Origin: an uncultured Pseudomonadota bacterium
GTDB taxonomy: Bacteria; Pseudomonadota; Alphaproteobacteria; Acetobacterales; Acetobacteraceae
Assembly: GCA_963786445.1 (NCBI GenBank)
Contig: CAWAZU010000037.1
Location: forward strand, 5,809 to 69,808
Direction: 5' to 3'
DNA length: 64,000 nucleotides
The translations under genes were made by a program, and so were the position numbers. Every line of letters begins with the position of its first letter. Positions within the stretch are counted from its first letter, which is position 1. Positions 52,269-63,729 of this stretch are shown here, piece after piece. The notes below the pieces were generated by a model, which did not search any database, was not told the origin of the DNA, and saw only the letters and a program-made list of their open reading frames with translations.

Positions 52269-53793
52269 TCAGAAAAATCCGTGCAGGAACCAGCGAAGGT
52301 CGCCGGTCGCGGGATCGACGGCGTCACCGCTGCGGTAGAGCCAGAACCGGCGGCCTGCCTCGTCCTCGACCTGCCAATAGTCGCGGGTTGCGCTGCGCTC
52401 GCGATCGGTCGCCCACCACTCTCCGGCGATGCGCTCGGGTCCATCCGCCCGCCTGATCCGGTGCCGCCTGCGGCGCCAGATGAACTGTGCCGGCGGGTGG
52501 TCGGGCAGCATCGCCAGGGCCTCAACCGGCTGCGGCGGCTTCAGCAGGCGGGCGGGCCGCGGCAGAGCGGCGGGCCAGGCGGTTTTGGTCGGCGGGGTCA
52601 GCGGCCCGATGCGGCGCACGCTGCGCTCCGGCACATCGCTCTCGACCGGTGCGGCACGGTAGACCCGCCGGGCACCCAGCCTGTTCACCAACCGGTCGAC
52701 CAGCACCGACACGTCAGGGCCGGTGTTCTCGCCTGCGATGAGACCCGCCCGCGGCTGTTCGAAGGTCAGCTTCTCGGTCAGTGGCGCCGCCAGATGCATG
52801 GCCTCGATGCCAAGCCCGGGATCGACCCGTTCGAGCTGCTCGTCCAGCAGCCTGGCCAGGTGGTCGGGCCGGTGGCTCGGGCGGGCGGTGCCGACACGGA
52901 TCAGCTGCTCGCGTGCGGTCGACGCGCTCGAAGGTCAGATCGAGCCGCCGCGCCCCCTGGCCGCGGCGTTCGAGCTCGGCACACACCATGCCGGACAGAC
53001 GGGCGATCACGCCGGACAGGGCCTCCGGCGTCAGCAAAGGCTCGGGGAATGCCAGCCGACCGGCCACCATATCCGGGGGCGAGATCGGGTCGATGGGCTC
53101 GCGGAGGCGGCCCAGCGCCTGATCGAGACGGCGAACGAGCTCCGGGCCGAACCGCAGGGTGAGCGGCGCCCGCGGCGCCGCCAGAAGCTGGTCGAGGCGT
53201 TCGAAGCCGAGCCGTACAAGACCCGCAATCGTCTCATCTGGCAGCCGCAGGGCGGCGATCGGCAACGGGCGGAGCGCGGCTGCCATCTCGCCGGCCGGCA
53301 CCACGGTCACGGCGGCCTCCGCGTATCGCGCGACCGCCCAGGCGGTGCCCGCCGTGTCAGCGATCGCGACCCGGGACGCGACGCCGGCCCGCGCGAGGCG
53401 CTCGACGAGATCCGCGAGCATCCCGGCCTCGCCACCGAACAGGTGTGCGCACCCCGTGGCGTCGATCCAGACGCCATCAGGCCGATCGGGCGCCGTGAGC
53501 GGTGCATAGCGCAGGCACCATGCGGCCAGCTCGTCGAGCGCCCGTGCATCGCCCTCCGGCTCCGCCATCACCACGGTCAGGCCCGGCACCACAGCCTGGG
53601 CCTGTGCGAGCGGCATGCCCGCAAACAGGCCCAAGGATCGGGCGACCCGGTCCGCGGCAGCCACAATCTGGCGGCGGCCGTCGCGGGCGGCAGTGACCAA
53701 TGGCCTATCCGCCGGCGGCACGACGGCGTTCGGGGGGCGCCGCAACCGGTCGGTCGGCCAGGTCGGCAGGAAGACCGAGATGACCCGTCGCAT
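52269..53793 (-). pseudogene. imuB: ImuB (Y-family polymerase-like) with one frameshift near 52915
   Basis: The N-terminal 290 aa (MRRVISVFLPTWPTDRL...) and the C-terminal 175 aa (...HLAAPLTEKLTFEQ...WFLHGFF) are in different frames. Read-through of the downstream frame gives continuous EQLIRVGTARPSHRPDHLARLL. Confidence 0.8.
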
Positions 53794-54487
53794 CGCTTGC
53801 CTCCACGATCCAGGATGCCGGTTCGCCGCCGCGGCAGCGCACCAGGTCGAGCCGCCAGCGCGGCCGTGCCAGGCCGGGCGTTGCGGGGGAATGCGCCAGC
53901 AGAGGCGGCGAAGGCAGGGCCGTGACGCGCCATCGGGTCACGGCGGCCGTCGGCTCGCCGACCAGCGCGTCGTCATGGCTGCGGCTGCGCCTGAGTGCGA
54001 AGCAGGTCACGCCGGACTGCTCCGCCGCCAATTGCAGGCGGCGCGATGCGGTCAGCGTCAGTCGGCCCGACAGCTCGCCCACCACGCCCGCCAGCCCGGC
54101 ATGGCGCAGGCCCTCCTCCATGGTCAGGAGGACGGTCCTGGACTTGCCCGCCTCCGCGTAGATGACGCGATCCGGATGCAGCCCGACGGCATCGAGCGCC
54201 GGCGCGAACAGATCCGGCCGCTCCAACACCCACAGGGCCTGGCCGGGCAGCCTTGCCAGGACGCCGGCGGTCAGCAGCGCCGCGGCGGCGCCGTGCTCGA
54301 TGTCCGGTCCGCCCCCCGCCACCTCATGCAAGGCGCCGAGAGCCAGGCCGCCGCCGGGCAGCCGGGCATCGACGGCCGGAATCCCGAACGGGAGGCTCGC
54401 GATGCCAGCCCTTGCCGGTCGCCCGACAGGGGCGATGCTGGCCTTCAACGCGGCCAAACGGGCTGCTGTCGTGTTACCTTGTTCCAC
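53705..54487 (-). CDS. imuA: ImuA (RecA-fold SOS mutagenesis protein)
   Basis: 260 aa. LPFGIPAVDARLPGGGLALGALHEV... is typical of ImuA. It is the first gene of the cassette, and its 3' end overlaps the imuB start region. Confidence 0.8.
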   Translation of the reverse strand: MEQGNTTAARLAALKASIAPVGRPARAGIASLPFGIPAVDARLPGGGLALGALHEVAGGGPDIEHGAAAALLTAGVLARLPGQALWVLERPDLFAPALDAVGLHPDRVIYAEAGKSRTVLLTMEEGLRHAGLAGVVGELSGRLTLTASRRLQLAAEQSGVTCFALRRSRSHDDALVGEPTAAVTRWRVTALPSPPLLAHSPATPGLARPRWRLDLVRCRGGEPASWIVEASDATGHLGLPADLADRPVAAPPERRRAAGG

Positions 54488-54519
54488 CGTGCCCCTCGCA
54501 CCACCTCGCGAAGAGCCGA

Positions 54520-54534
54520 GAACATATAGAGAAC
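54520..54534 (-). promoter_or_regulatory. Alphaproteobacterial-type LexA (SOS) box GTTC-N7-GTTC
   Basis: The forward strand reads GAACATATAGAGAAC. It lies 33-47 nt upstream of the imuA start at 54487. Confidence 0.75.
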
Positions 54535-54671
54535 CCCTGCCCCGAGTCGAGTCCTCTTCAGCCTCGGCAGTGACGCAGTTTCAACGCGAGCGACCGCAAA
54601 ACGCCTGCCCCCATCGCAGGCTAGTATGTTTCTATGTCGGAACATTTTAGGCGTGCGGGGGCGCCGCGCGG

Positions 54672-55229
54672 TCAGGCGGGAACGGGCGGGATGCCGGGGA
54701 CGGGCGGGGAGAGGATGCGGGGCCGCGCGCGCGGCGGCGGCCGGGGACGGCAGGCGGGACGGGACGGGGCCGCCGGCCGGACCGGCGGCGGCGGGCGCTG
54801 CGCGGGCGGCGGCGGGCGGACGCCCAGCATTTGGCAGAGCGGGCGGAGCAGCCGCCCGGCCTGGGGGGCTGCGGCGAGCAGGTCGGCCATCGCCGGATCG
54901 GCGAGCAGGTGCTGCAACTGCGAGGCCGCGGACGGCGGCCTGCGGCAGCCGGCGCACGAGCCAGGCGACGCCGCGCGGCAGCCGCAGCGGCGGGGGCCGG
55001 GCCGGGCGGGGAGAGCGGAGGCGGCGGCGCGGCGGCGGCAGCGTGCCGGCGCGGACTTTTGCCGCGAGGCGGGCGAACCGCTCCGCGGTGCGGCGCAGCC
55101 GCGACCAGAGCAGCAGCATCAGCGGCACGGCGAGCCAGGCCCGGCGCCGCGCGCGGCGATGGCGCGGCGCAGGCCCTCGACCAGACGGGCAAAACGGTCG
55201 GCCAGGGCGGGGGAAGCGGCGGGTGGCAT
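54672..55229 (-). pseudogene. Pro/Arg/Ala-rich conserved-looking hypothetical, apparently split over three frame segments
   Basis: Collinear pieces are MPPAASPALADRFARLVEGLRRAIAARG / PLMLLLWSRLRRTAERFARLAAKVRAG...VAWLVRRLPQAA / QLQHLLADPAMADLLAAAPQAGRLLRPLCQMLG, in frames 2, 0 and 2. Extreme GC makes this call weak. Confidence 0.3.
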
Positions 55230-55341
55230 GGCAGCGATACTAACACGACCCCCGGCGGGCTGGGCAAGCCAGCGCCGGATCGTGCTCGGCGCAAAGCTGG
55301 CGCCGCAGCAAGTCCGCCAACTCGGCCACACGGCCCACTGA

Positions 55342-55393
55342 GTAGATTCCGAAACCCTCCGCGCGCCGCCTTGCGTAGATTCCGAACCTCCTC
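55342..55393 (+). repeat. Two direct copies of GTAGATTCCGAA(N)CC(T)CC, with a third related copy at 58699-58718
   Basis: 55342 GTAGATTCCGAAACCCTCC; 55375 GTAGATTCCGAACCTCCTC; 58699 GTAGAATCCGAGCCTTCCCC. All are on the plus strand. Confidence 0.5.
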
Positions 55394-55666
55394 ACAGATG
55401 ATGATGTCGATATTATTCGGCCTGACGTCGTTGCCCGAAGCCTCAAGATAAAACAACGGCGGCAGGCGCTCAAACGTCTTGATTGCGTAAGACGACCAGA
55501 TAACGGTCAGATATGTTACAGTACAATAAAGGGTACATCAATGCAATCACGTGCAGGTTCCTCCGCTTGCCCGGCCATCTTGCGTTTGTTGTCTGCCGCT
55601 TCGGGACATCGTAGAGCACAAGATCGGCCGACTGTCCGCGCCGCTGCACCAACTCGAAAGCATGCT

Positions 55667-56527
55667 GTGGTGCGCTCCGGTACCCAATTTGCGCTGGCCA
55701 TCGGTTTTGCCATCGCAGGTTACGGCAGCGCAAGGGCGGACCCAATAACATTTACATGGGATCCGTCGGCCATTGGTCTTACCACCTCGCCAGCAAACTC
55801 GCAGATTGTGGCCGACAACTTCAACGTGTCCGATTTTTTTGACGTGACTGTGGCCAGCAACGGCGCCTTTACCGAGAGTTCCGCACTGACGGCCTTGCAG
55901 TTCCTGAACGGCGGCAATCCTGTCGCGCTGAACGGTCTGCAATCCACCTACAGCTTCTACGTCACCTTCTCCTCCACCGGCATGCAGGCTCCAGTACCCG
56001 CGCTGGGCTCGGGGCTCTCATCGCCCGGGGCGTTCACCACCGGCAACTACACCTTCTGGGCCAATCCCAACAGCCAACCCGTCGTGACACCCGTCCCCGG
56101 CGGCGCGCCGGTCATCAGCGGCAATGCGGGCGCGATCCCGCTGTTCAGCGGAACGCTTGTCAATGGAACGAGCACACTGACCGCGCCCGCCGGCGGCGGC
56201 TATTCGCCCACCGCCAATCTGGATTTGACGCTGACCGCCTGCTCGGCGGCGGGACAGCCTCTGGCGACCGGCGGCACCTGCACCGGCAATGAGACCGCCT
56301 TCTTCGTCAATCCGCCGCCGGCCGCCTTCAACCTTGCCGTCAGCAACTTCAGCGCCACCCCCTCGGTCACCACGCTCGCGGCGGGATCTTCGACCTTCCT
56401 CGATGTCGATGGCGGCGGCGGCAACGTGACCTTTGCCAGTGATATTCCGGAGCCGGCCTCATTGGTGGTCCTGGGTTCCGGCCTGATCGGGCTGGGAATG
56501 GTGCGCCGCCGCCGAATCAATGGCTGA
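55667..56527 (+). CDS. PEP-CTERM sorting-domain exported protein
   Basis: The C-terminus IPEPASLVVLGSGLIGLGMVRRRR is PEP + TM helix + Arg cluster. Signal-like FALAIGFAIAGYGSARA. The GTG start was chosen by signal position, and the ORF is open from 55541. Confidence 0.75.
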   Translation: MVRSGTQFALAIGFAIAGYGSARADPITFTWDPSAIGLTTSPANSQIVADNFNVSDFFDVTVASNGAFTESSALTALQFLNGGNPVALNGLQSTYSFYVTFSSTGMQAPVPALGSGLSSPGAFTTGNYTFWANPNSQPVVTPVPGGAPVISGNAGAIPLFSGTLVNGTSTLTAPAGGGYSPTANLDLTLTACSAAGQPLATGGTCTGNETAFFVNPPPAAFNLAVSNFSATPSVTTLAAGSSTFLDVDGGGGNVTFASDIPEPASLVVLGSGLIGLGMVRRRRING

Positions 56528-56647
56528 CATCGCTGGGCGCCAGCGGTTGACAGGTGGCGACGACCGGACATCGCCGCGTGTGTTTGTGAGACAGACAAGC
56601 CACGGGCCGACGGGAACTCCCCCGAATGTCCGGCAAAAGTCGCCGGC

Positions 56648-58633
56648 ATGACCGACGCACCGCACTTTCGCTACGATCTCGCGTTCGAACGAAACCTTGG
56701 GTGGATCACCGAAGCCGAGCAGCTTGCCCTTCGCGGCAAATGCGTTGCGATCGCCGGCCTGGGCGGCGTTGGCGGGGTCCATCTGCTGACGCTGGCGCGA
56801 CTCGGGATCGGCGCATTCCATATCGCGGACTTCGACACATTCAGCGTCGCCAACTTCAATCGGCAGATTGGTGCGACAGTCCAGACCATCGGTCGCCCGA
56901 AGGTCGACGTGCTCGATGAAATGGCGCGCGCCATCAACCCGGAGCTCCGGATACGGCGGTTCGACACGGGGGTCACAACCGAGAACATCGACCGGTTCCT
57001 GGACGGTGTGGATCTGTTCGTGGATGGCTTTGACTTTTTCGTCATCGACATGCGCCGCCAGGTCTTCAGCCGTTGCAGGGAACTGGGCATTCCGGCGGTC
57101 ACGGCCGCACCCGTCGGCCTGGGAACGGCATTCCTGGCGTTCACGCCCCGGGGGATGACATTCGAGGACTATTTCCGGCTGGAGGGACACCGGGAGAACG
57201 AGCAGTACCTTCGCTTTCTCCTGGGTCTCACGCCCAAGGGCCTGCATCGCGGATATCTGATGGATCGCACGCGGGTCGATCTGGCCGCACAGCAGGTCCC
57301 CTCGACGATCGCCGGCTGCCAGCTTAGCGCGGGCGTCGCGGCGGTCATGGCGATCAAGTTGCTGCTCGGACGGGGCGATGTGAAGGCCGCACCGTACCAC
57401 CATCACTTCGACGCCTATCGCGCCAAGCTCTCGGTCACCAGGCTGACGTTCGGGAACGCCGGACCGATCCAGCGGCTCAAACTTGCCTTTGCCCGGAAGG
57501 CTTTCGCCGGAATGGTGCAGCGCGCGCCGGCTGGCGATCCCGAAATCGCCCAGTCGCCGATTGCGGAAATCCTGCGCGCCGCGCGCTGGGCACCGAGCGG
57601 CGACAATGCGCAGCCGTGGCGTTTCGAACTGCTCGGCGACGACGCCGTCGCCGTCCGCCTGACGAAGCCGGACGCTGACAATGTCTACGAATATCGCAAC
57701 GGCGAACCGCTGCTGCTCGCCGGCGGCATGCTCCTGGAGAGCCTGCGTATCGCTGCGACCGCGCACGGCAGGACCATGGAGTGGCGGCACGAAGGCTCCG
57801 GCTGGCCCGACCGCATCGTCGTGCGTTTCGCGCCGGTGCCGGGTCTGGAAGTTGACGTTCTCAACTCTTATCTCGGGCTGCGATCGGTGAATCGCCGGCC
57901 CTACCGGATGCGGCCGCTCCACGAACAGGAGCAGGCTGCGCTGAAGGGTGCGCTCGGCGACCGGCTCGTCCTCGACTGGTATCCCCGGCTGGTGCAGCGT
58001 GGGCAATTCGCGTGGCTCAGCGCTCGGGCGACTGATATCAGACTGCGCGCGCCGGAAACTTTTCCAACGCACCAGCGGGTCGTCGATTGGCAGCGCATGC
58101 TCAGCCCCACCGGCGTTCCCGCCGGCGCGCTGGGCCTCGGCCGCCCGACGCTCGTGCTGATGCGCTGGGCCATGCGGAGCTGGCCGCGGATGCGCATCCT
58201 GAACGGCTTCGGCAGCACGGCAGTGGCTGCGGTTCAGATGGATTTCGCGCCTATTCTGGCCAGCGCCGCGTGTTTCACCGTGCGATTGGCGCGGTCCGCA
58301 CCGGCAGCGGAGGACCATGTGCCATCGCTGCTGCTGGCGGGCCAGCATCTGCAACGCTTCTGGCTAACCGCGACCCGCCTCGGCCTGTCGCTGCAGCCGT
58401 TGCTGGCCATGCTGATCTTCGCGGATTATGGCGAAGGCAAGCCGGCGTTCACCGTCAACGCTGCGGTCCAGAACAAGTCGGCAGCTCTCGCGAGGTCGTT
58501 TCGGCAGACCCTTGGCGCCGGCGCGAGCGATTTTATCTTCGCGGGCCGGATCGGCGAGCCACGGGCCACGCGGGCCGATTGCCGGTCAGTGCGGCGTCCT
58601 CTTGTCGAGCTCCTCCAGCAAGGGATTGGTTAG
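56648..58633 (+). CDS. ThiF/MoeB-type E1-like adenylyltransferase fused to a nitroreductase-like domain (Rv1355c/MoeY-like, from memory)
   Basis: The N-terminal 270 aa carry the Rossmann motif IAGLGGVGGVHLLTLARLG and NFNRQ. The C-terminal 380 aa carry RWAPSGDNAQPWRF and a second nitroreductase-like half. 661 aa. Confidence 0.7.
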   Translation: MTDAPHFRYDLAFERNLGWITEAEQLALRGKCVAIAGLGGVGGVHLLTLARLGIGAFHIADFDTFSVANFNRQIGATVQTIGRPKVDVLDEMARAINPELRIRRFDTGVTTENIDRFLDGVDLFVDGFDFFVIDMRRQVFSRCRELGIPAVTAAPVGLGTAFLAFTPRGMTFEDYFRLEGHRENEQYLRFLLGLTPKGLHRGYLMDRTRVDLAAQQVPSTIAGCQLSAGVAAVMAIKLLLGRGDVKAAPYHHHFDAYRAKLSVTRLTFGNAGPIQRLKLAFARKAFAGMVQRAPAGDPEIAQSPIAEILRAARWAPSGDNAQPWRFELLGDDAVAVRLTKPDADNVYEYRNGEPLLLAGGMLLESLRIAATAHGRTMEWRHEGSGWPDRIVVRFAPVPGLEVDVLNSYLGLRSVNRRPYRMRPLHEQEQAALKGALGDRLVLDWYPRLVQRGQFAWLSARATDIRLRAPETFPTHQRVVDWQRMLSPTGVPAGALGLGRPTLVLMRWAMRSWPRMRILNGFGSTAVAAVQMDFAPILASAACFTVRLARSAPAAEDHVPSLLLAGQHLQRFWLTATRLGLSLQPLLAMLIFADYGEGKPAFTVNAAVQNKSAALARSFRQTLGAGASDFIFAGRIGEPRATRADCRSVRRPLVELLQQGIG

Positions 58634-59032
58634 TGGGGGACCTTGTCGAAGGGGTGAATGGCCGCCTTTTGAAAACCGCGTTCTTCACGGGCGACTAAGT
58701 AGAATCCGAGCCTTCCCCTTGTCGCCGACGTTGCTACCATGGCACCATCGCCATGAGGCGAACTTGATGCGACCGAGGAGGGTTGAGCTCCGCTGATCGC
58801 TAACGCTGCTGCGCGCCGGCGTCCTAAGGTTACACAGCCGCCCCGTTCGCACACCGTTCGGCGGGTTCAAATCCGACCATCCGCGTACACGGACGCTGGT
58901 TCGCGGCGTGACCGGCTCGTGCGGCCGATCGGAGCGAAACAGGCGGGTCCCGAACAGTTTTCTCGGAGCCCGTGTCCCCATGCGCTTGTCCGCGAATTTG
59001 GTTAAGACCAGTGGAGCTTGCCAGGCATTTCC

Positions 59033-60925
59033 ATGCATATAAACTCAAAGGAGCAACGTAAATCACCTCGCCATTTGGATCAGCTGCGACAGCAGACGGT
59101 TCTAGCAAAATTCGGTGAACTCGCCCTGAAGTCCGACAGCCTGGATAAGATTTTGGCCGAGGCCTGCCGTCTCGTAGGCGAAGGGCTGGGCACCGACCTC
59201 GCCAAGGTGATGAAGTTGGAGGATGACGGCGAGACGTTGCTGGTGCGTGCCGGCGTCGGCTGGAAGCCAGGCATCGTCGGCGTGCTGACCCTCAAGGTGG
59301 CGGACAGCACGTCGGAAAGCCTTGCCCTCAAGACGGGAGACCCGACGATCTCCCCGAACGTCGCGACCGAGACGCGGTTCAAGTATCCGCAGTTCCTGAT
59401 CGACAACGGCGTCAAGGCAATGGCCAACGTGGCGATCATCGGGAGCGAAGGCAGGCCCCCGTTCGGCATCCTGCAGATCGACAGCCGCGAGCCCCGCCAG
59501 TTTACCGACGACGACACCGCTTTCTTGCGCAGCTATGCAAACCTCATCGCGGCGGCCGTGGACCGTTTGCGTGTGATCGGGGAGATGCGCCATGCGCTGA
59601 TCGAGGCATCGAACGCCCGGGATGAGGCGGATCGCGCCAGCCACGCCAAATCGCGGTTTCTGGCGAATATGAGCCACGAGTTGCGCACGCCGTTGAACGG
59701 CATCCTGGGCTACGCCGAGCTGCTGCGTGTCGAAGGCGGGCTGAGCGTCATTCAGAAGGCGCGGGTGGACGCCATGAGAGGTCCGGGCGCGCACCTGCTC
59801 CTGATGATCAACCGCGTGCTCGACCTGTCGGGGATCGAGGCCGAGCTCGTCAAGCTGGAACCGGTCGAATGTGATTTGCGCAGCCTCGCGGAGACATGCC
59901 TCAGTTTCGTCCGGCCGGCGGCGGAGGCAAGAAGTCTCAGGCTCGGCCTGGTCGCGGCGCCGGACATGCCGCCCACCGTCTTCATCGACCCCGTGCGGCT
60001 GCGGCAGGTGCTGCTCAACCTGCTCGGCAACGCGGTGAAGTTCACGAAGCAAGGCTCCGTGGAGTTGCGCCTGCGGCGGTCGTCGGACAAAGCCAGGCTG
60101 CTTGTCGAGGTGGTGGATACCGGACCAGGCATACCGGCGGAGCAGCGCCATCGCCTGTTCCGGGAATTCGAGCGGCTCGATGCCAACAGCACCAGCTTGG
60201 TCGAAGGCACCGGCCTGGGCCTCGCCATCTCGGCCCGGCTCGCAGCCTACATGGGCGGCCGGCTTCACTATGAGGACAACCCGCCGGGCGGCAGCATATT
60301 CCGGCTGGAACTTCCGCTGGCGGCCGGCTCGCGTCCCGCACCACCTCCAGCCAACGTACCTGCCCGCGGCCCACCGGATACTCCGGCAGTCCCAACTCCT
60401 GCGCGCGCTCTACGCGTGCTGGTCGTCGATGATATCGCCATGAACCGCGACATCGCCGGCTCGCTCCTGCGCGCCGGCGGCCACGAGGTCGCTTACGCTG
60501 AAGGCGGGGCGGCGGCGGTCGAAGCCGTTGCGGCCGGAGATTTCGATGTTGTTCTCATGGACGTACGCATGCCTGAAGTGGACGGGATCGAGGCGACACG
60601 CCGCATCCGCCTCCTGACGGGTACCCGACGGCAGGTGCCCATCGTGGCCCTGACCGCGCTGGCCTTCCCCGAACAGGTTGAGATATGCCGCCGAGCGGGC
60701 ATGAAAGGCCACGTGACCAAGCCCTTTACTCTGGATACGCTGAACGATGCGATCGCGCGCGCCACTCGCGAAGCGCAGGCAGACGGCGAAGTCGCGGCAG
60801 CAGGGCCCGAAGTTCCGCCAACGGAAGTTGCGGCGAGCCACACGGACACCGTCCCCGTTTCCCGCCCCTCCCTCGCACCTGGCACCACCGGTGCTGAATC
60901 TGCGAGCGTTCAAGGCACGGGCTGA
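59033..60925 (+). CDS. Hybrid sensor histidine kinase (GAF - HisKA - HATPase - REC)
   Basis: GAF-like N-terminus ([12 protein letters not shown]...FGILQIDS). H-box [18 protein letters not shown] boxes [27 protein letters not shown]. Receiver LVVDDIAMN...[12 protein letters not shown]...KP. Confidence 0.85.
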
Positions 60926-61238
60926 CTCTCTCGCACCCGAGAAGCTCGCCGATTATGTCCGGACCATCGCCGGGCGCACCGAAGATATCCTGCGTGGGCT
61001 GTGCATGCCGGACGCCTTGGCAACCAACGACACCAAGCTTGCCGACGCTGCGCACGCCCTCGCGGGCAGCGCCATCATGTTCGGCTTCGAGCGCCTGGCG
61101 GCCGCAGCCCTTGGTTTCGAGCGCGCCGTCCAGACCGGTGCCGTAGAGACACCGGCTTTTGCCGACGATCTCCGTGCCGCCGCGACGATCACGCTTGAAG
61201 AAATCCACACCCGCAACGCGGACCGCGCGGAGGCGTGA
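60891..61238 (+). CDS. Hpt (histidine phosphotransfer) domain protein, or frameshifted C-terminal Hpt of the kinase
   Basis: AAHALAGSAIMFGFERLA fits the Hpt H..KG.A..G motif. The candidate GTG at 60891 overlaps the kinase 3' end by 35 nt in another frame. Confidence 0.55.
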   Translation: MLNLRAFKARADSLAPEKLADYVRTIAGRTEDILRGLCMPDALATNDTKLADAAHALAGSAIMFGFERLAAAALGFERAVQTGAVETPAFADDLRAAATITLEEIHTRNADRAEA

Positions 61239-61265: not shown

Positions 61266-62237
61266 TTACTGCGTCCCTCGTGCTGATCCGTGCAACACGG
61301 CCGTGGCTGCCGTCGGGGGGCTCCACCCTGTCGGAACCGGCGAGGCAGCCGCGAAGCGGTCGAGGTCGGCGAGCGCGGACTGCAACAGCCGGCCGGAAAA
61401 CCCTGAGCTATCTGCCTGGAACTCGTGACTCAGCATGCGCAGCTTCAACGCAACATCGGCCGCGTCCCGTGCCGGAGTCCGAGCGAGGCGCTCGCCAGCG
61501 AGCCATCCGGCGCCGATACGGCTCGCGCGTTCGTCGTCGAATATGCTGCCATCATTGGCCGGCGCGGTTGCGGCCGGGAGCATGCCGAACCAGGTCCCGC
61601 CATCGGTCAGGTAGTTCCAGACCTGCCATTGTTCAGACCGCATCCGGGCGAGCACAATGGCGATGTTGCCGACCGTTGGCTGGCGGATCCCGTGGTAGGA
61701 TACGAGGGGACCGACCGGCTGGAAGTGGATGCCGTTCCGCTGATTCAGTCGCAGCAGACTCGGCTCCATGACGGCCAGCCAATGGGTCAATCCCATGTCG
61801 CTGCTGATCTGCACGACCCCGCGCAGCAGCGCCAGCCGCAGCAGTGACGCGGTCGCGCAAGAGATCCGTCGCTGCTTGGAGATGGCGAAGCGCGATACCT
61901 CGCCTGTCGTGCGCAGCGGCAGGGGACGAAACCACGACGCGTCGCACAGGCGCTGCATCGGGAAACTGTCGTCCAAATTGGCCAGATTGGCGGCGAGAAC
62001 CCTGACAGTTCCGACGACCTCGCCATCGCTGGCATGACGCAGAAGAGCGTGACGGGAGCGGGCGTCGAATTCGTCAGTCTCCTCCTCCCCCACGGCGCTT
62101 TCGAATCCACGCTCAACGCAATAGACCTGATGGCGGAGGCGAAATACCTCGCGCAGCTGCTCGGCGCTTGTAGCCTGTTCCAGGGTAAACTGGGTTGCGG
62201 CGAGCGAGATCTCGTCGCCAGTATCTGGAACGTCCAT
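61266..62237 (-). CDS. GNAT-fold N-acyl amino acid synthase-like acyltransferase (PEP-CTERM/exosortase-associated type) with C-terminal extension
   Basis: ATG at 62237 lies 7 nt after GGAGG. LRHQVYCVERGFE...DEFD..S.H.LL...VGTVR...SRFAISK resembles the FeeM/autoinducer-synthase-like fold. About 100 extra C-terminal residues have no recognisable motif. Confidence 0.6.
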   Translation of the reverse strand: MDVPDTGDEISLAATQFTLEQATSAEQLREVFRLRHQVYCVERGFESAVGEEETDEFDARSRHALLRHASDGEVVGTVRVLAANLANLDDSFPMQRLCDASWFRPLPLRTTGEVSRFAISKQRRISCATASLLRLALLRGVVQISSDMGLTHWLAVMEPSLLRLNQRNGIHFQPVGPLVSYHGIRQPTVGNIAIVLARMRSEQWQVWNYLTDGGTWFGMLPAATAPANDGSIFDDERASRIGAGWLAGERLARTPARDAADVALKLRMLSHEFQADSSGFSGRLLQSALADLDRFAAASPVPTGWSPPTAATAVLHGSARGTQ

Positions 62238-62733
62238 AGCCACCCTCCTGAAAATCGGCAAGCGCTATGCGAATTCATCACGATTGTATATCATGATGTT
62301 CGCGGCATAAAATTAACAATTTCCGAAATGTTCAAAATTAATGAGTTTATCGCGACGCGGCACGGGTCCATTTTACGAGATCCCGCAACAATATAAGAGA
62401 TCAGTGATATATTGTGGGAAGTTACGTATCTGCAGAGTTGACGCCTATTGAAAAACCTCTGTGCCATTCCTAACCTCTTCTACCGGTGCATACAAGATAA
62501 TATTGGATTGGCGAGAATGCTACGGTCATTCGACGCGCCACTCGCGCAGGTTCAAGGAACATTTGCGGCCCCTGCCAGCCAATCCCGGCAGCAATGGAAC
62601 CACTATGCCGCCGGGAGGGACCAACATCACGATGCGTAGCATCGTAACGAGATAGCAAATGGTTCTCTGAGGTTGCGGCACGATGATTGCAAACTTGTGT
62701 GCGACGTTACGATGACCGGTATGGAGGAGTTCA
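62238..62733. promoter_or_regulatory. Unusually AT-rich 496-bp divergent intergenic region
   Basis: Visibly AT-rich, with tracts such as ataaaattaacaatttccgaaatgttcaaaattaatgagtttatc. It lies between the acyltransferase (-) and the double-receiver regulator (+). Confidence 0.5.
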
Positions 62734-63729
62734 ATGCCCCGTGCGTCAAACAATCAGACTCCGCGAGCTCGCATCCTGATCTTGGAAGATGACCCGCTGC
62801 AGGCGCAGATCCTCGAATCCGTCATGGTTGCCGCGACCTTCGAGGTGGATGCCGTCAGCAGCGGGCTGGACGCGGTGCGGCAGATGCAGCGGGTTCACTA
62901 CGACGTGGTCGTCGTCGATTACCAGGTTCCCGAGATCAATGGCCTCGCACTCGCGAAATTGGCCGACGACTTCATGGGGCCGGTGGTCCGGCCCATTCTG
63001 ATCGCACTCACCGCGACGCCGGAGCATCTGCGCGCCATGGAGAGCGGAGCGCACAGCGCATTCGACGCCGTCATTGGCAAATCCTCAGATTTCTCTTCGC
63101 TCCTATCCGCCATCACCCGCTGCCTCGCAGCCATGCCCGACAGCGCGACGCGGCAGACGGCCGAGTCCTCGCTCCTCCGCAAGGACCGGCTGGATTACGA
63201 GGCAGAGCCGTGCCGTCCGGGAGCCCAGGGCGACGATCCCGGCCCGCCGCGGATTCTCGTCGTCGAGGACGAGGAGTGCCAGCGATTGCTGCTGACATCC
63301 GTACTCGAGCAGCGAGGATATGTTGTTGAGAATCTTTCCAATGGCCTGGAGGCGGTCAGGCAAATTCGCGAGGGCTGCTACGACCTGGCTCTCGTCGACT
63401 ACAATTTGCCCGAGATGGACGGCCTGGCGGCGGGAACGCTCATACTGGATCTGCTGCAGGAGCATTTGCGCCCAAGGCTGATCGCTCTGACATCGACGCC
63501 AGCTCGGCTGCGCGACCGAGAAATGCTGGTCGGCAGCGTATTTGACGAGATTATCGAAAAGTCCACCGATCTGCATGACTTGATCTGTGCGGTGGATCGT
63601 CATCTGAGATCTTCGCCCAATCCGGCAACGCGGCGCGCTGCGCGCATCCACTCCGGCGATGGCGCCGTCAAGGACGGCAAATCACTTGAACCGAAGTCCC
63701 ATGCGGCAGGGATCGCCGGGGTTGGGTAA
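62734..63729 (+). CDS. Response regulator with two receiver domains and no output domain
   Basis: GGAGGAG RBS. REC1 is ILILEDDP...VVVVDYQVPEINGL...K. REC2 is ILVVEDEE...LALVDYNLPEMDGL...K. 331 aa. Confidence 0.8.
   Translation: MPRASNNQTPRARILILEDDPLQAQILESVMVAATFEVDAVSSGLDAVRQMQRVHYDVVVVDYQVPEINGLALAKLADDFMGPVVRPILIALTATPEHLRAMESGAHSAFDAVIGKSSDFSSLLSAITRCLAAMPDSATRQTAESSLLRKDRLDYEAEPCRPGAQGDDPGPPRILVVEDEECQRLLLTSVLEQRGYVVENLSNGLEAVRQIREGCYDLALVDYNLPEMDGLAAGTLILDLLQEHLRPRLIALTSTPARLRDREMLVGSVFDEIIEKSTDLHDLICAVDRHLRSSPNPATRRAARIHSGDGAVKDGKSLEPKSHAAGIAGVG

Follow-up and report, generated by a model that had tools for sequence, protein, structure and literature searches.

In a 64,000-nucleotide stretch of DNA from an uncultured Acetobacteraceae bacterium (contig CAWAZU010000037.1 of assembly GCA_963786445.1, positions 5,809 to 69,808; hereafter the window), a gene for a secreted PEP-CTERM protein of the PepA family is followed, 120 bp downstream and on the same strand, by a gene for a 661-aa protein that joins a ThiF-like domain to a nitroreductase-like flavin oxidase (pepA and oxzB, respectively; Table 1). 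We put the probability at about 80% that this fusion protein is an oxazolone synthetase of the OxzB/TrzS type acting on a small N-acyl amino acid. Together with a nearby N-acyl amino acid synthase (hereafter NAS) gene, pepA and oxzB most likely constitute a conserved three-gene module, and the pairing of pepA with oxzB exceeds chance, as the same adjacency is found in many other genomes. The chemistry comes from the experiments of others on homologues, while the homology, the conserved catalytic motifs, the synteny and the co-occurrence were observed in the present analysis; from these we infer what the enzyme uses and makes in this organism, as well as any functional connection with PepA. The enzyme itself is new only as a further member of a known enzyme type, and what our analysis adds is counts for the pairing of OxzB-type genes with PepA. 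The recurrence of this pairing across many bacteria offers a testable clue to the purpose of oxazolone lipids.

Domain architecture and enzyme type of the fusion protein

The two domains of the fusion protein lie in a single polypeptide, with the ThiF-like domain first and the nitroreductase-superfamily flavin oxidase second. Within the latter, the nitroreductase model PF00881 matches residues 297–341 and NF047509 (Acg family flavin mononucleotide (FMN) oxidoreductase) covers residues 308–588 with an E-value of 3e-22. The Rv1355c family model extends over residues 298–655 with its C-terminal half. A first-pass annotation, made from the sequence of the window, had recognized a PEP-CTERM gene followed by a fusion of ThiF and double nitroreductase-like domains. 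Both open reading frames (ORFs) are real and lie where it had placed them, the profile searches agree with its domain calls, and the three motifs it quoted are present, namely IAGLGGVGGV at residues 35–44, NFNRQ at residues 69–73 and RWAPSGDNAQPWRF at residues 313–326. More than 1600 homologues share the same ThiF–nitroreductase architecture. An alignment of 21 of the homologues, with identities of 55–72%, showed that the GxGGxGG motif (G37–G43), D61, N69, R72, Q73, K85 and D126 are invariant in the ThiF part, as are the FMN-type nitroreductase motifs RWAPSGDNxQPW (R313–W324) and RSVxRR (412–416, including R412 and R416) in the flavin part. The ThiF positions could be aligned with those of TcdA, with conservation of the ATP-binding and adenylation residues. 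By the shared ThiF motif, and not by a direct alignment, D126 probably corresponds to D217 of TrzS, an enzyme whose oxidase domain has R540 and Q651 as flavin-binding residues.

Among proteins of solved structure, the nearest relatives by sequence are TcdA, ThiF and MoeB, with TcdA the closest (E = 2e-16). An AlphaFold2 model of the fusion protein (predicted local distance difference test score, pLDDT, 81) displays two folded regions connected by a low-confidence linker at residues 289–299, and its ThiF half matches the folds of ThiF, AclA, MoeB and MccB. In the fold search with the whole fusion, the top 50 matches listed all fell on the ThiF-like (E1) domain, and the Acg-like nature of the C-terminal half is therefore taken from NCBIfam only. 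The fusion protein has no signal peptide and would need ATP and flavin; hence, it is expected to work in the cytoplasm.

The functional assignment draws on several characterized homologues. OxzB from Pseudoalteromonas rubra, a ThiF–nitroreductase di-domain enzyme, converts N-acyl tyrosine with ATP to tyrazolones, the N-acyl tyrosine being made by the adjacent N-acyltransferase OxzA; 56 OxzB homologues have been reported from alpha-, beta- and gammaproteobacteria, most of them adjoining oxzA (10.1101/2020.06.11.147165). Rv1355c ("MoeY") is TrzS, a fusion of a ThiF-type cyclase and a flavin-dependent oxidase (FDO), which uses the N-acyl tryptophan supplied by TrzA in an ATP-dependent cyclization followed by an O2-dependent desaturation; the variants D217A in the ThiF domain and R540A in the oxidase domain separate these two steps (PMC12856293). 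TyzB and TyzC of Mycobacterium tuberculosis are a split form of the same cyclase/oxidase pair (PMC10404671). The first-pass annotation had described Rv1355c/MoeY-like fusions as lacking a demonstrated function, a statement that is outdated because OxzB and TrzS, i.e., Rv1355c itself, are characterized producers of N-acyl oxazolones. The labels referring to MoeY or molybdopterin biosynthesis are wrong for this family of ThiF–nitroreductase fusions. As for the chemistry, the annotation was right in kind: carboxylate adenylation combined with flavin-dependent oxidation yields a five-membered heterocycle in these homologues.

We found that the fusion protein is 41% identical, over residues 6–656, to the product of the oxzB-type gene in an oxzAB-like operon of Pseudoalteromonas ardens, where this gene begins 4 bp after an acyltransferase gene positive for TIGR03694, and the NCBIfam profiles of the two fusions are nearly identical. 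As in the OxzA/OxzB system of de Rond et al., the ThiF and nitroreductase domains occur in the same order and the partner acyltransferase also belongs to TIGR03694; in contrast to that system, the acyltransferase gene of the window lies outside an oxzAB operon, 2.6 kb downstream and on the opposite strand, and a PepA-type PEP-CTERM gene immediately adjoins the fusion gene. With TrzA/TrzS (Rv1356c/Rv1355c; mycobacterial and rhodococcal enzymes described by Kleetz et al. 2025), in which cyclization obligately precedes desaturation, the protein of the window shares the ThiF-cyclase/FDO fusion, the ThiF aspartate and an Acg-like flavin domain, whereas that system is actinobacterial and TrzS has genes for cyclic di-GMP turnover as its neighbours. 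TyzA/TyzB/TyzC (Grigg et al. 2023) follow the same course of N-acylation, ThiF-type cyclization and FDO desaturation, but with the cyclase and the oxidase as separate proteins. Like the fusion protein as we read it, TcdA, the tRNA t6A cyclodehydratase, is an adenylation-driven cyclodehydratase and not a sulfur-transfer E1; unlike it, TcdA acts on tRNA and has no oxidase domain, and the alignment between them spans window residues 32–157 only.

The NAS, which the first-pass annotation had overlooked, scores 183.3 bits against TIGR03694 (cut-off 111.95), and also matches the Pfam models FeeM, Autoind_synth and GNAT; no second copy of it was found in the genome to which the window belongs. It is the likely supplier of the substrate of the fusion enzyme. 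In the proposed pathway, the NAS would acylate an amino acid, and the ThiF-like domain of the fusion would adenylate the carboxylate of the resulting N-acyl amino acid, upon which the amide oxygen would close a 5(4H)-oxazolone ring. The FMN oxidase domain would then desaturate the α–β bond with O2, giving an N-acyl oxazolone or, once the ring opens, an N-acyl dehydro-amino acid. Such an enzyme would be cytoplasmic with a small molecule as its target. Given the function of OxzB and TrzS and the nearby NAS, we regard a small N-acyl amino acid as the most likely substrate, and not the exported PEP-CTERM protein; the enzyme probably makes a small-molecule lipid and does not modify PepA.

Synteny and co-occurrence of pepA, oxzB and the acyltransferase gene

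The comparison covered 80 homologous loci taken from genomes that represent species, plus four taken from relatives, for which ORFs were called and hidden Markov models (HMMs) were built for the analysis; neighbour counts refer to the 62 distinct loci that have 3 kb or more of sequence on both sides. These counts showed a clear association of the fusion gene with both partners. An NAS gene lies no more than 3 kb away in 39/62 loci and abuts the fusion gene in 31/62. A PEP-CTERM gene lies within 1.5 kb, likewise in 31/62, and 25 of these 31 match the PepA-family HMM. Both partners are present in 25/62 loci and the NAS without a PEP-CTERM gene in 14/62. Among the 15 closest relatives, the association is stronger still, with an NAS in 13 and a PEP-CTERM gene in 14; in the closest of all, the NAS gene directly adjoins the fusion gene. 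The PEP-CTERM ORFs of the 10-kb flanks are concentrated next to the fusion gene (27/47 within the first 1 kb), and those neighbours that were sampled pass or approach the NF033554 cut-off, a few belonging instead to the EDSAP-1 and THxN families. Thus, the PEP-CTERM linkage that the first-pass annotation saw in a single locus is conserved in homologues. The same annotation had named, as the arrangement that would speak against its proposal, homologues that sit in molybdopterin or thiamine operons and show no PEP-CTERM linkage; with moaD/moaE near 1/81 homologous loci and a PEP-CTERM gene no farther than 1.5 kb away in half of the 62, this is not what we found.

The usual order in the Acetobacteraceae-type relatives is pepA, oxzB and a convergent NAS gene, with pepA on either strand. 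Across loci, pepA occurs on the same strand as oxzB or on the opposite one, and upstream or downstream of it; hence, co-translation or operon coupling of the two genes is not conserved. Only pepA, oxzB and NAS are widely common to the window and the other loci, three flanking genes of the window matching one locus each. In a genome from the same genus (G001, C10:116066–118071), the fusion gene appears as three matches in different frames with an NAS gene about 1.8 kb away, as might be expected of a copy that is broken or was misassembled.

A survey of 61 relatives gave a concordant picture: a full-length OxzB is encoded by six genomes, from five genera, and these are exactly the six with a PepA over the cut-off. 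In the five of them other than the genome of the window, pepA adjoins oxzB. By comparison, NAS was found in 10 of the 61 and an exosortase in 21. We also searched an even sample of 401 genomes from the phylum, counting as OxzB-type ThiF both fused and ThiF-only forms and accepting PepA at E ≤ 1e-15. An OxzB-type ThiF was detected in 16 of these and PepA in eight; all eight PepA genomes have the ThiF gene (8/8), and in 7/8 no more than about 2.5 kb separates them, a pattern that covers several families. In the sampled alphaproteobacterial and other proteobacterial families, the oxazolone-forming ThiF cyclase and PepA therefore travel together more tightly than either does with the exosortase generally. 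Exosortase systems are not known from the actinobacteria.

In several of the PepA loci, the cyclase was detected but no oxidase half within 16 kb. ThiF-only genes of the PRK08223 type, encoding about 285–330 aa and 51–59% identical to the N-terminal half of the window's fusion protein, adjoin PepA genes in five genomes (G391, G413, G407, G313 and G079; loci L113–L117), with an NAS 3–4 kb from the ThiF-only gene in 3/5. They resemble the cyclase half of the split TyzB/TyzC system, with no oxidase gene detected nearby. At one such locus, the genes follow each other in the order NAS, sugar-nucleotide genes, serine protease, a ThiF-only gene (PRK08223, 417 bits), PepA (169 bits) and PrsT; this ThiF–PepA–PrsT row fits the pepA–prsT arrangement published for the floc former Aquincola (PMC9850573). 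In G391, six PepA copies are found near the ThiF-only gene.

NAS genes are already said, by papers that cite Craig, Cherry and Brady (2011), to be linked to PEP-CTERM/exosortase loci. A PEP-CTERM gene is also present in the Stieleria maiorica cluster for stieleriacines (N-acyl dehydrotyrosines), and a published inference links NAS and the N-acyl dehydrotyrosines, i.e., ring-opened oxazolones, with PEP-CTERM/exopolysaccharide loci and biofilm composition (PMC7293339). Those reports concern the acyltransferase, and the Stieleria paper (PMC7293339) makes no mention of ThiF or nitroreductase; here, in contrast, the PEP-CTERM gene is linked most tightly with that of the ThiF-type cyclase, and its product is specifically of the PepA family. 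In the searchable literature, we found no connection of oxazolone synthetases with PEP-CTERM proteins, the sole paper with both "PEP-CTERM" and "oxazolone" using the two words in unrelated places. The OxzB preprint nowhere mentions PEP-CTERM (10.1101/2020.06.11.147165), the PepA paper nowhere mentions ThiF, nitroreductase or acyltransferase genes (PMC9850573), and a table for Rubrivivax lists "UBA/THIF-type" genes within a PEP-CTERM/exopolysaccharide cluster without comment. Since pepA, oxzB and NAS form a conserved module, the lipid and PepA, a floc- and exopolysaccharide-associated surface protein, probably serve one cell-surface or aggregation programme. The pairing touches on two gaps: the physiological role of bacterial N-acyl oxazolones, which Kleetz et al. 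2025 (PMC12856293) call unresolved, and the acceptor and accessory chemistry of the PEP-CTERM/exosortase system.

The PepA-like protein and the weighing of alternatives

The product of the window's pepA-like gene scores 95.3 bits against the floc_PepA model NF033554 (cut-off 80), has a signal peptide and a PEP-CTERM domain, and is encoded in a genome with an exosortase (contig 25, 186 bits), all of which support its membership in the PepA family. Its open frame reaches upstream to an ATG at 55541 (55541–56527, forward strand), and PF07589 matches residues 301–324 with 24 bits (cut-off 20.7). At the C-terminus, a VPEP-type sequence precedes a hydrophobic segment and then RRRRING. The GTG at 55667, favoured by the first-pass annotation, is the likely start: read from there, the sequence gives a normal signal peptide, VVRSGTQFALAIGFAIAGYGSARA, and a mature N-terminus, DPITFTWDP, which aligns with those of relatives. 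It is the one PepA-family gene over the cut-off in the genome, where about five other, weak PEP-CTERM matches occur. Like PepA of Aquincola tertiaricarbonis and Zoogloea resiniphila (PMC9850573), the protein passes NF033554 and combines a signal peptide with a PEP-CTERM tail. Unlike them, it is a distant member, scoring 95 bits where the best matches in the sampled genomes reach about 200 bits, and its gene is not accompanied by a PrsR over the cut-off or by a sigma-54 site upstream. Control of pepA by sigma-54 and PrsR was accordingly rejected, as no PrsR over the cut-off was found here and the roughly 210 bp upstream of pepA hold no match to the −24/−12 consensus with up to two mismatches. 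The AlphaFold2 model is all-beta, with long antiparallel strands (pLDDT 82, predicted template modelling score 0.77). A Foldseek search with it against the PDB returned nothing significant (best E = 0.013, TM-score at most 0.24), and fold comparison thus gave no mechanistic hint.

A number of observations weigh against the reading of the fusion as an oxazolone synthetase, or against its pairing with NAS and pepA as a fixed module. The P. ardens protein used for comparison is the homologue of a congener and not the assayed enzyme, and the nearest assayed enzymes are about 40% identical to the fusion protein or less. The TrzS equivalog model PRK07877 ("Rv1355c family protein") gives 144.6 bits against a cut-off of 476, with its best stretch at residues 298–655, and PRK14851 gives 394 bits against a cut-off of 1170. 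The subfamily therefore differs from that of TrzS; by its sequence, we assign the protein to a subfamily that is proteobacterial but shares the enzyme type. In the window, 2.6 kb and two signalling genes separate oxzB from the NAS, which is encoded on the opposite strand. In 6/62 loci, a PEP-CTERM gene occurs without an NAS, and 17/62 have neither. The genomes are related, and because of this the co-occurrence counts overstate independence. Finally, no oxidase half was found within 16 kb in five sampled genomes from other families, i.e., at 5/6 loci. With ThiF-only genes beside PepA, the constant partner of the latter may thus be the cyclase alone, and the product at these loci may not be a desaturated oxazolone.

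The ThiF-only loci bear on a different view, in which the ThiF-type cyclase is a dedicated partner of PepA. Here, the activated N-acyl amino acid, either the acyl-adenylate or the reactive oxazolone (an azlactone, i.e., an activated N-acyl aminoacyl species), would serve as the acyl donor for covalent lipidation of PepA or another component of the exosortase or exopolysaccharide system, with no free metabolite. Were this so, PEP-CTERM cargo would gain a lipid anchor, the "exosortase-associated" acyltransferases would be explained and the oxazolones would be given a physiological role. The linkage of PepA to the ThiF cyclase is very tight, in some genomes tighter than that to NAS (the loci with a PEP-CTERM gene only, 6/62, e.g., that of G017). 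Oxazolones readily ring-open with water and alcohols, being destroyed by acid and by methanol (PMC12856293), and are thus chemically competent acyl donors; the ThiF-only versions beside PepA would yield the more reactive saturated oxazolone. Moreover, three bands were obtained with recombinant Aquincola PepA, and the authors attributed them to processing and modification (PMC9850573). However, the family alignment of PepA contains no invariant residue outside the PEP-CTERM tail and hence no obvious conserved acceptor site; the body of PepA is exported whereas the enzyme works in the cytoplasm, with no dedicated exporter encoded in the window. The module also lacks an evident transferase, and the characterized homologues OxzB and TrzS release their oxazolones free (10.1101/2020.06.11.147165, PMC12856293). 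On balance, we consider lipidation of PepA unlikely, at about one chance in ten, and the synthesis of a free N-acyl oxazolone the better account.

The first-pass annotation itself had suggested a maturase similar to those of peptides that the ribosome makes and that are then modified post-translationally (RiPPs), whereby the enzyme would adenylate a carboxylate of PepA and then oxidize the product. The short gap of 120 bp that separates pepA from the co-directional fusion gene downstream, free of terminator-like sites, the conserved adjacency of the two genes and the action of the ThiF-like proteins MccB and PaaA on peptides would fit such a role. Against it, the orientation of pepA and its side relative to oxzB vary between loci, and PepA is Sec-exported, with C-terminal tails that differ in sequence across the family. 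Pfam and NCBIfam reported only the ThiF and nitroreductase domains in the fusion protein and no leader-recognition domain, and no YcaO was found in the window's genome, which is 86% complete. The conserved partner is an NAS, and the experimentally established substrates of OxzB and TrzS are small molecules. These points make a PepA maturase distinctly improbable, more so than lipidation. The annotation was correct in that YcaO and a precursor peptide are lacking. The gaps at 56528–56647 and 58634–59017 contain no terminator-like site, no Rfam match and no convincing small ORF, the frames in the latter being featureless and GC-rich; a precursor peptide beside the fusion gene was therefore rejected as a candidate. 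Peptide maturation of the azoline or thiazole/oxazole-modified microcin (TOMM) type, which combines an E1-like protein with a YcaO cyclodehydratase and a SagB dehydrogenase, was likewise rejected, given the missing YcaO and the want of a credible precursor ORF in the gaps.

The "MoeY" label implies yet another role, in the synthesis of molybdopterin or thiamine, where an E1 of the MoeB/ThiF type would activate a sulfur-carrier protein. The fusion protein weakly matches the ThiF and MoeB models, and some members bear database names such as "sulfur-carrier protein adenylyltransferase", both of which point that way. Yet the ThiF/MoeB equivalog scores are 58–83 bits against cut-offs of 266–647, and the fusion protein sequence contains neither CxxC zinc motifs nor a rhodanese domain. 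The moaD–moaE pair and thiS lie on other contigs of the genome, and a second, weaker ThiF-family match is found on another contig. Because of the location of moaDE and thiS and the near absence of moaD/moaE from the homologous loci (1/81), we rejected a sulfur-carrier context, and a function of this kind appears highly improbable, the least probable of those considered here.

Further features of the window

Table 1. Positions of the genes, domains and repeats discussed, numbered from the first nucleotide of the window.
Feature	Position	Strand	Evidence
11-mer GTAGATTCCGA, two copies with a spacing of 33 nt, upstream of pepA by about 290 bp	55342..55385 (55342–55352, 55375–55385)	+	
pepA-like gene, flocculation-associated PepA-family secreted PEP-CTERM protein	55667..56527	+	NF033554, PF07589
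Fusion gene (putative oxzB), ThiF-like and Acg-type double nitroreductase, 661 aa	56648..58633	+	Domain profiles, oxzB-type homology
ThiF-like adenylating/cyclizing domain, residues 15–264	56690..57439	+	PF00899 137 bits, PRK08223 419 bits
Acg-type double nitroreductase-fold (flavin-dependent oxidase) domain, residues 297–655	57536..58612	+	PF00881, NF047509, Rv1355c model
11-mer, third copy GTAGAATCCGA, 66 nt downstream of the oxzB stop	58699..58709	+	
Hybrid histidine kinase (GAF-HisKA-HATPase-REC)	59018–60925	+	Domain profiles
Histidine phosphotransfer (Hpt) gene	60747–61238	+	Domain profiles
N-acyl amino acid synthase (OxzA/TrzA-type; "PEP-CTERM/exosortase system-associated acyltransferase")	61266..62261	-	TIGR03694

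The pepA-like gene is not, as the first-pass annotation had held, the only co-directional neighbour of the fusion gene, because the kinase and Hpt genes are also on the forward strand. The 3′ end of the kinase gene is overlapped, in another frame, by the Hpt ORF, which may represent an Hpt domain that became detached or else a coupled gene. We considered these signalling genes as part of the module and rejected them: no counterpart of the kinase, the Hpt protein or the double-receiver regulator was found in any other locus, and the same holds for imuA, imuB and dnaE2. The sequence CGGCACGATGATTGC at 62676–62690 on the forward strand, 44 nt 5′ of the double-receiver regulator gene (62734–63729), has one mismatch to the sigma-54 −24/−12 consensus; window-wide, such matches occur at chance level.

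In the imuA–imuB–dnaE2 cassette, upstream of the module, imuB (52269–53793, reverse strand) appears to be split into two overlapping frames, 52714–53793 with the IMS domain and 52269–52799 with DUF6504, a pattern that points to a frameshift or to an error in sequencing. A stretch of about 1 kb (54445–55456), flanked by imuA on one side and on the other by the AT-richer sequence upstream of pepA, has a GC content of 73–74% and open frames on both strands, and no Pfam or NCBIfam match was found for it. The 11-mer GTAGAWTCCGA was not found in the loci of relatives; it occurs seven times in the whole genome and three times in the window, against 0.02 expected, and all three copies bracket pepA–oxzB. 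It may be a lineage-specific regulator site or the trace of an insertion.

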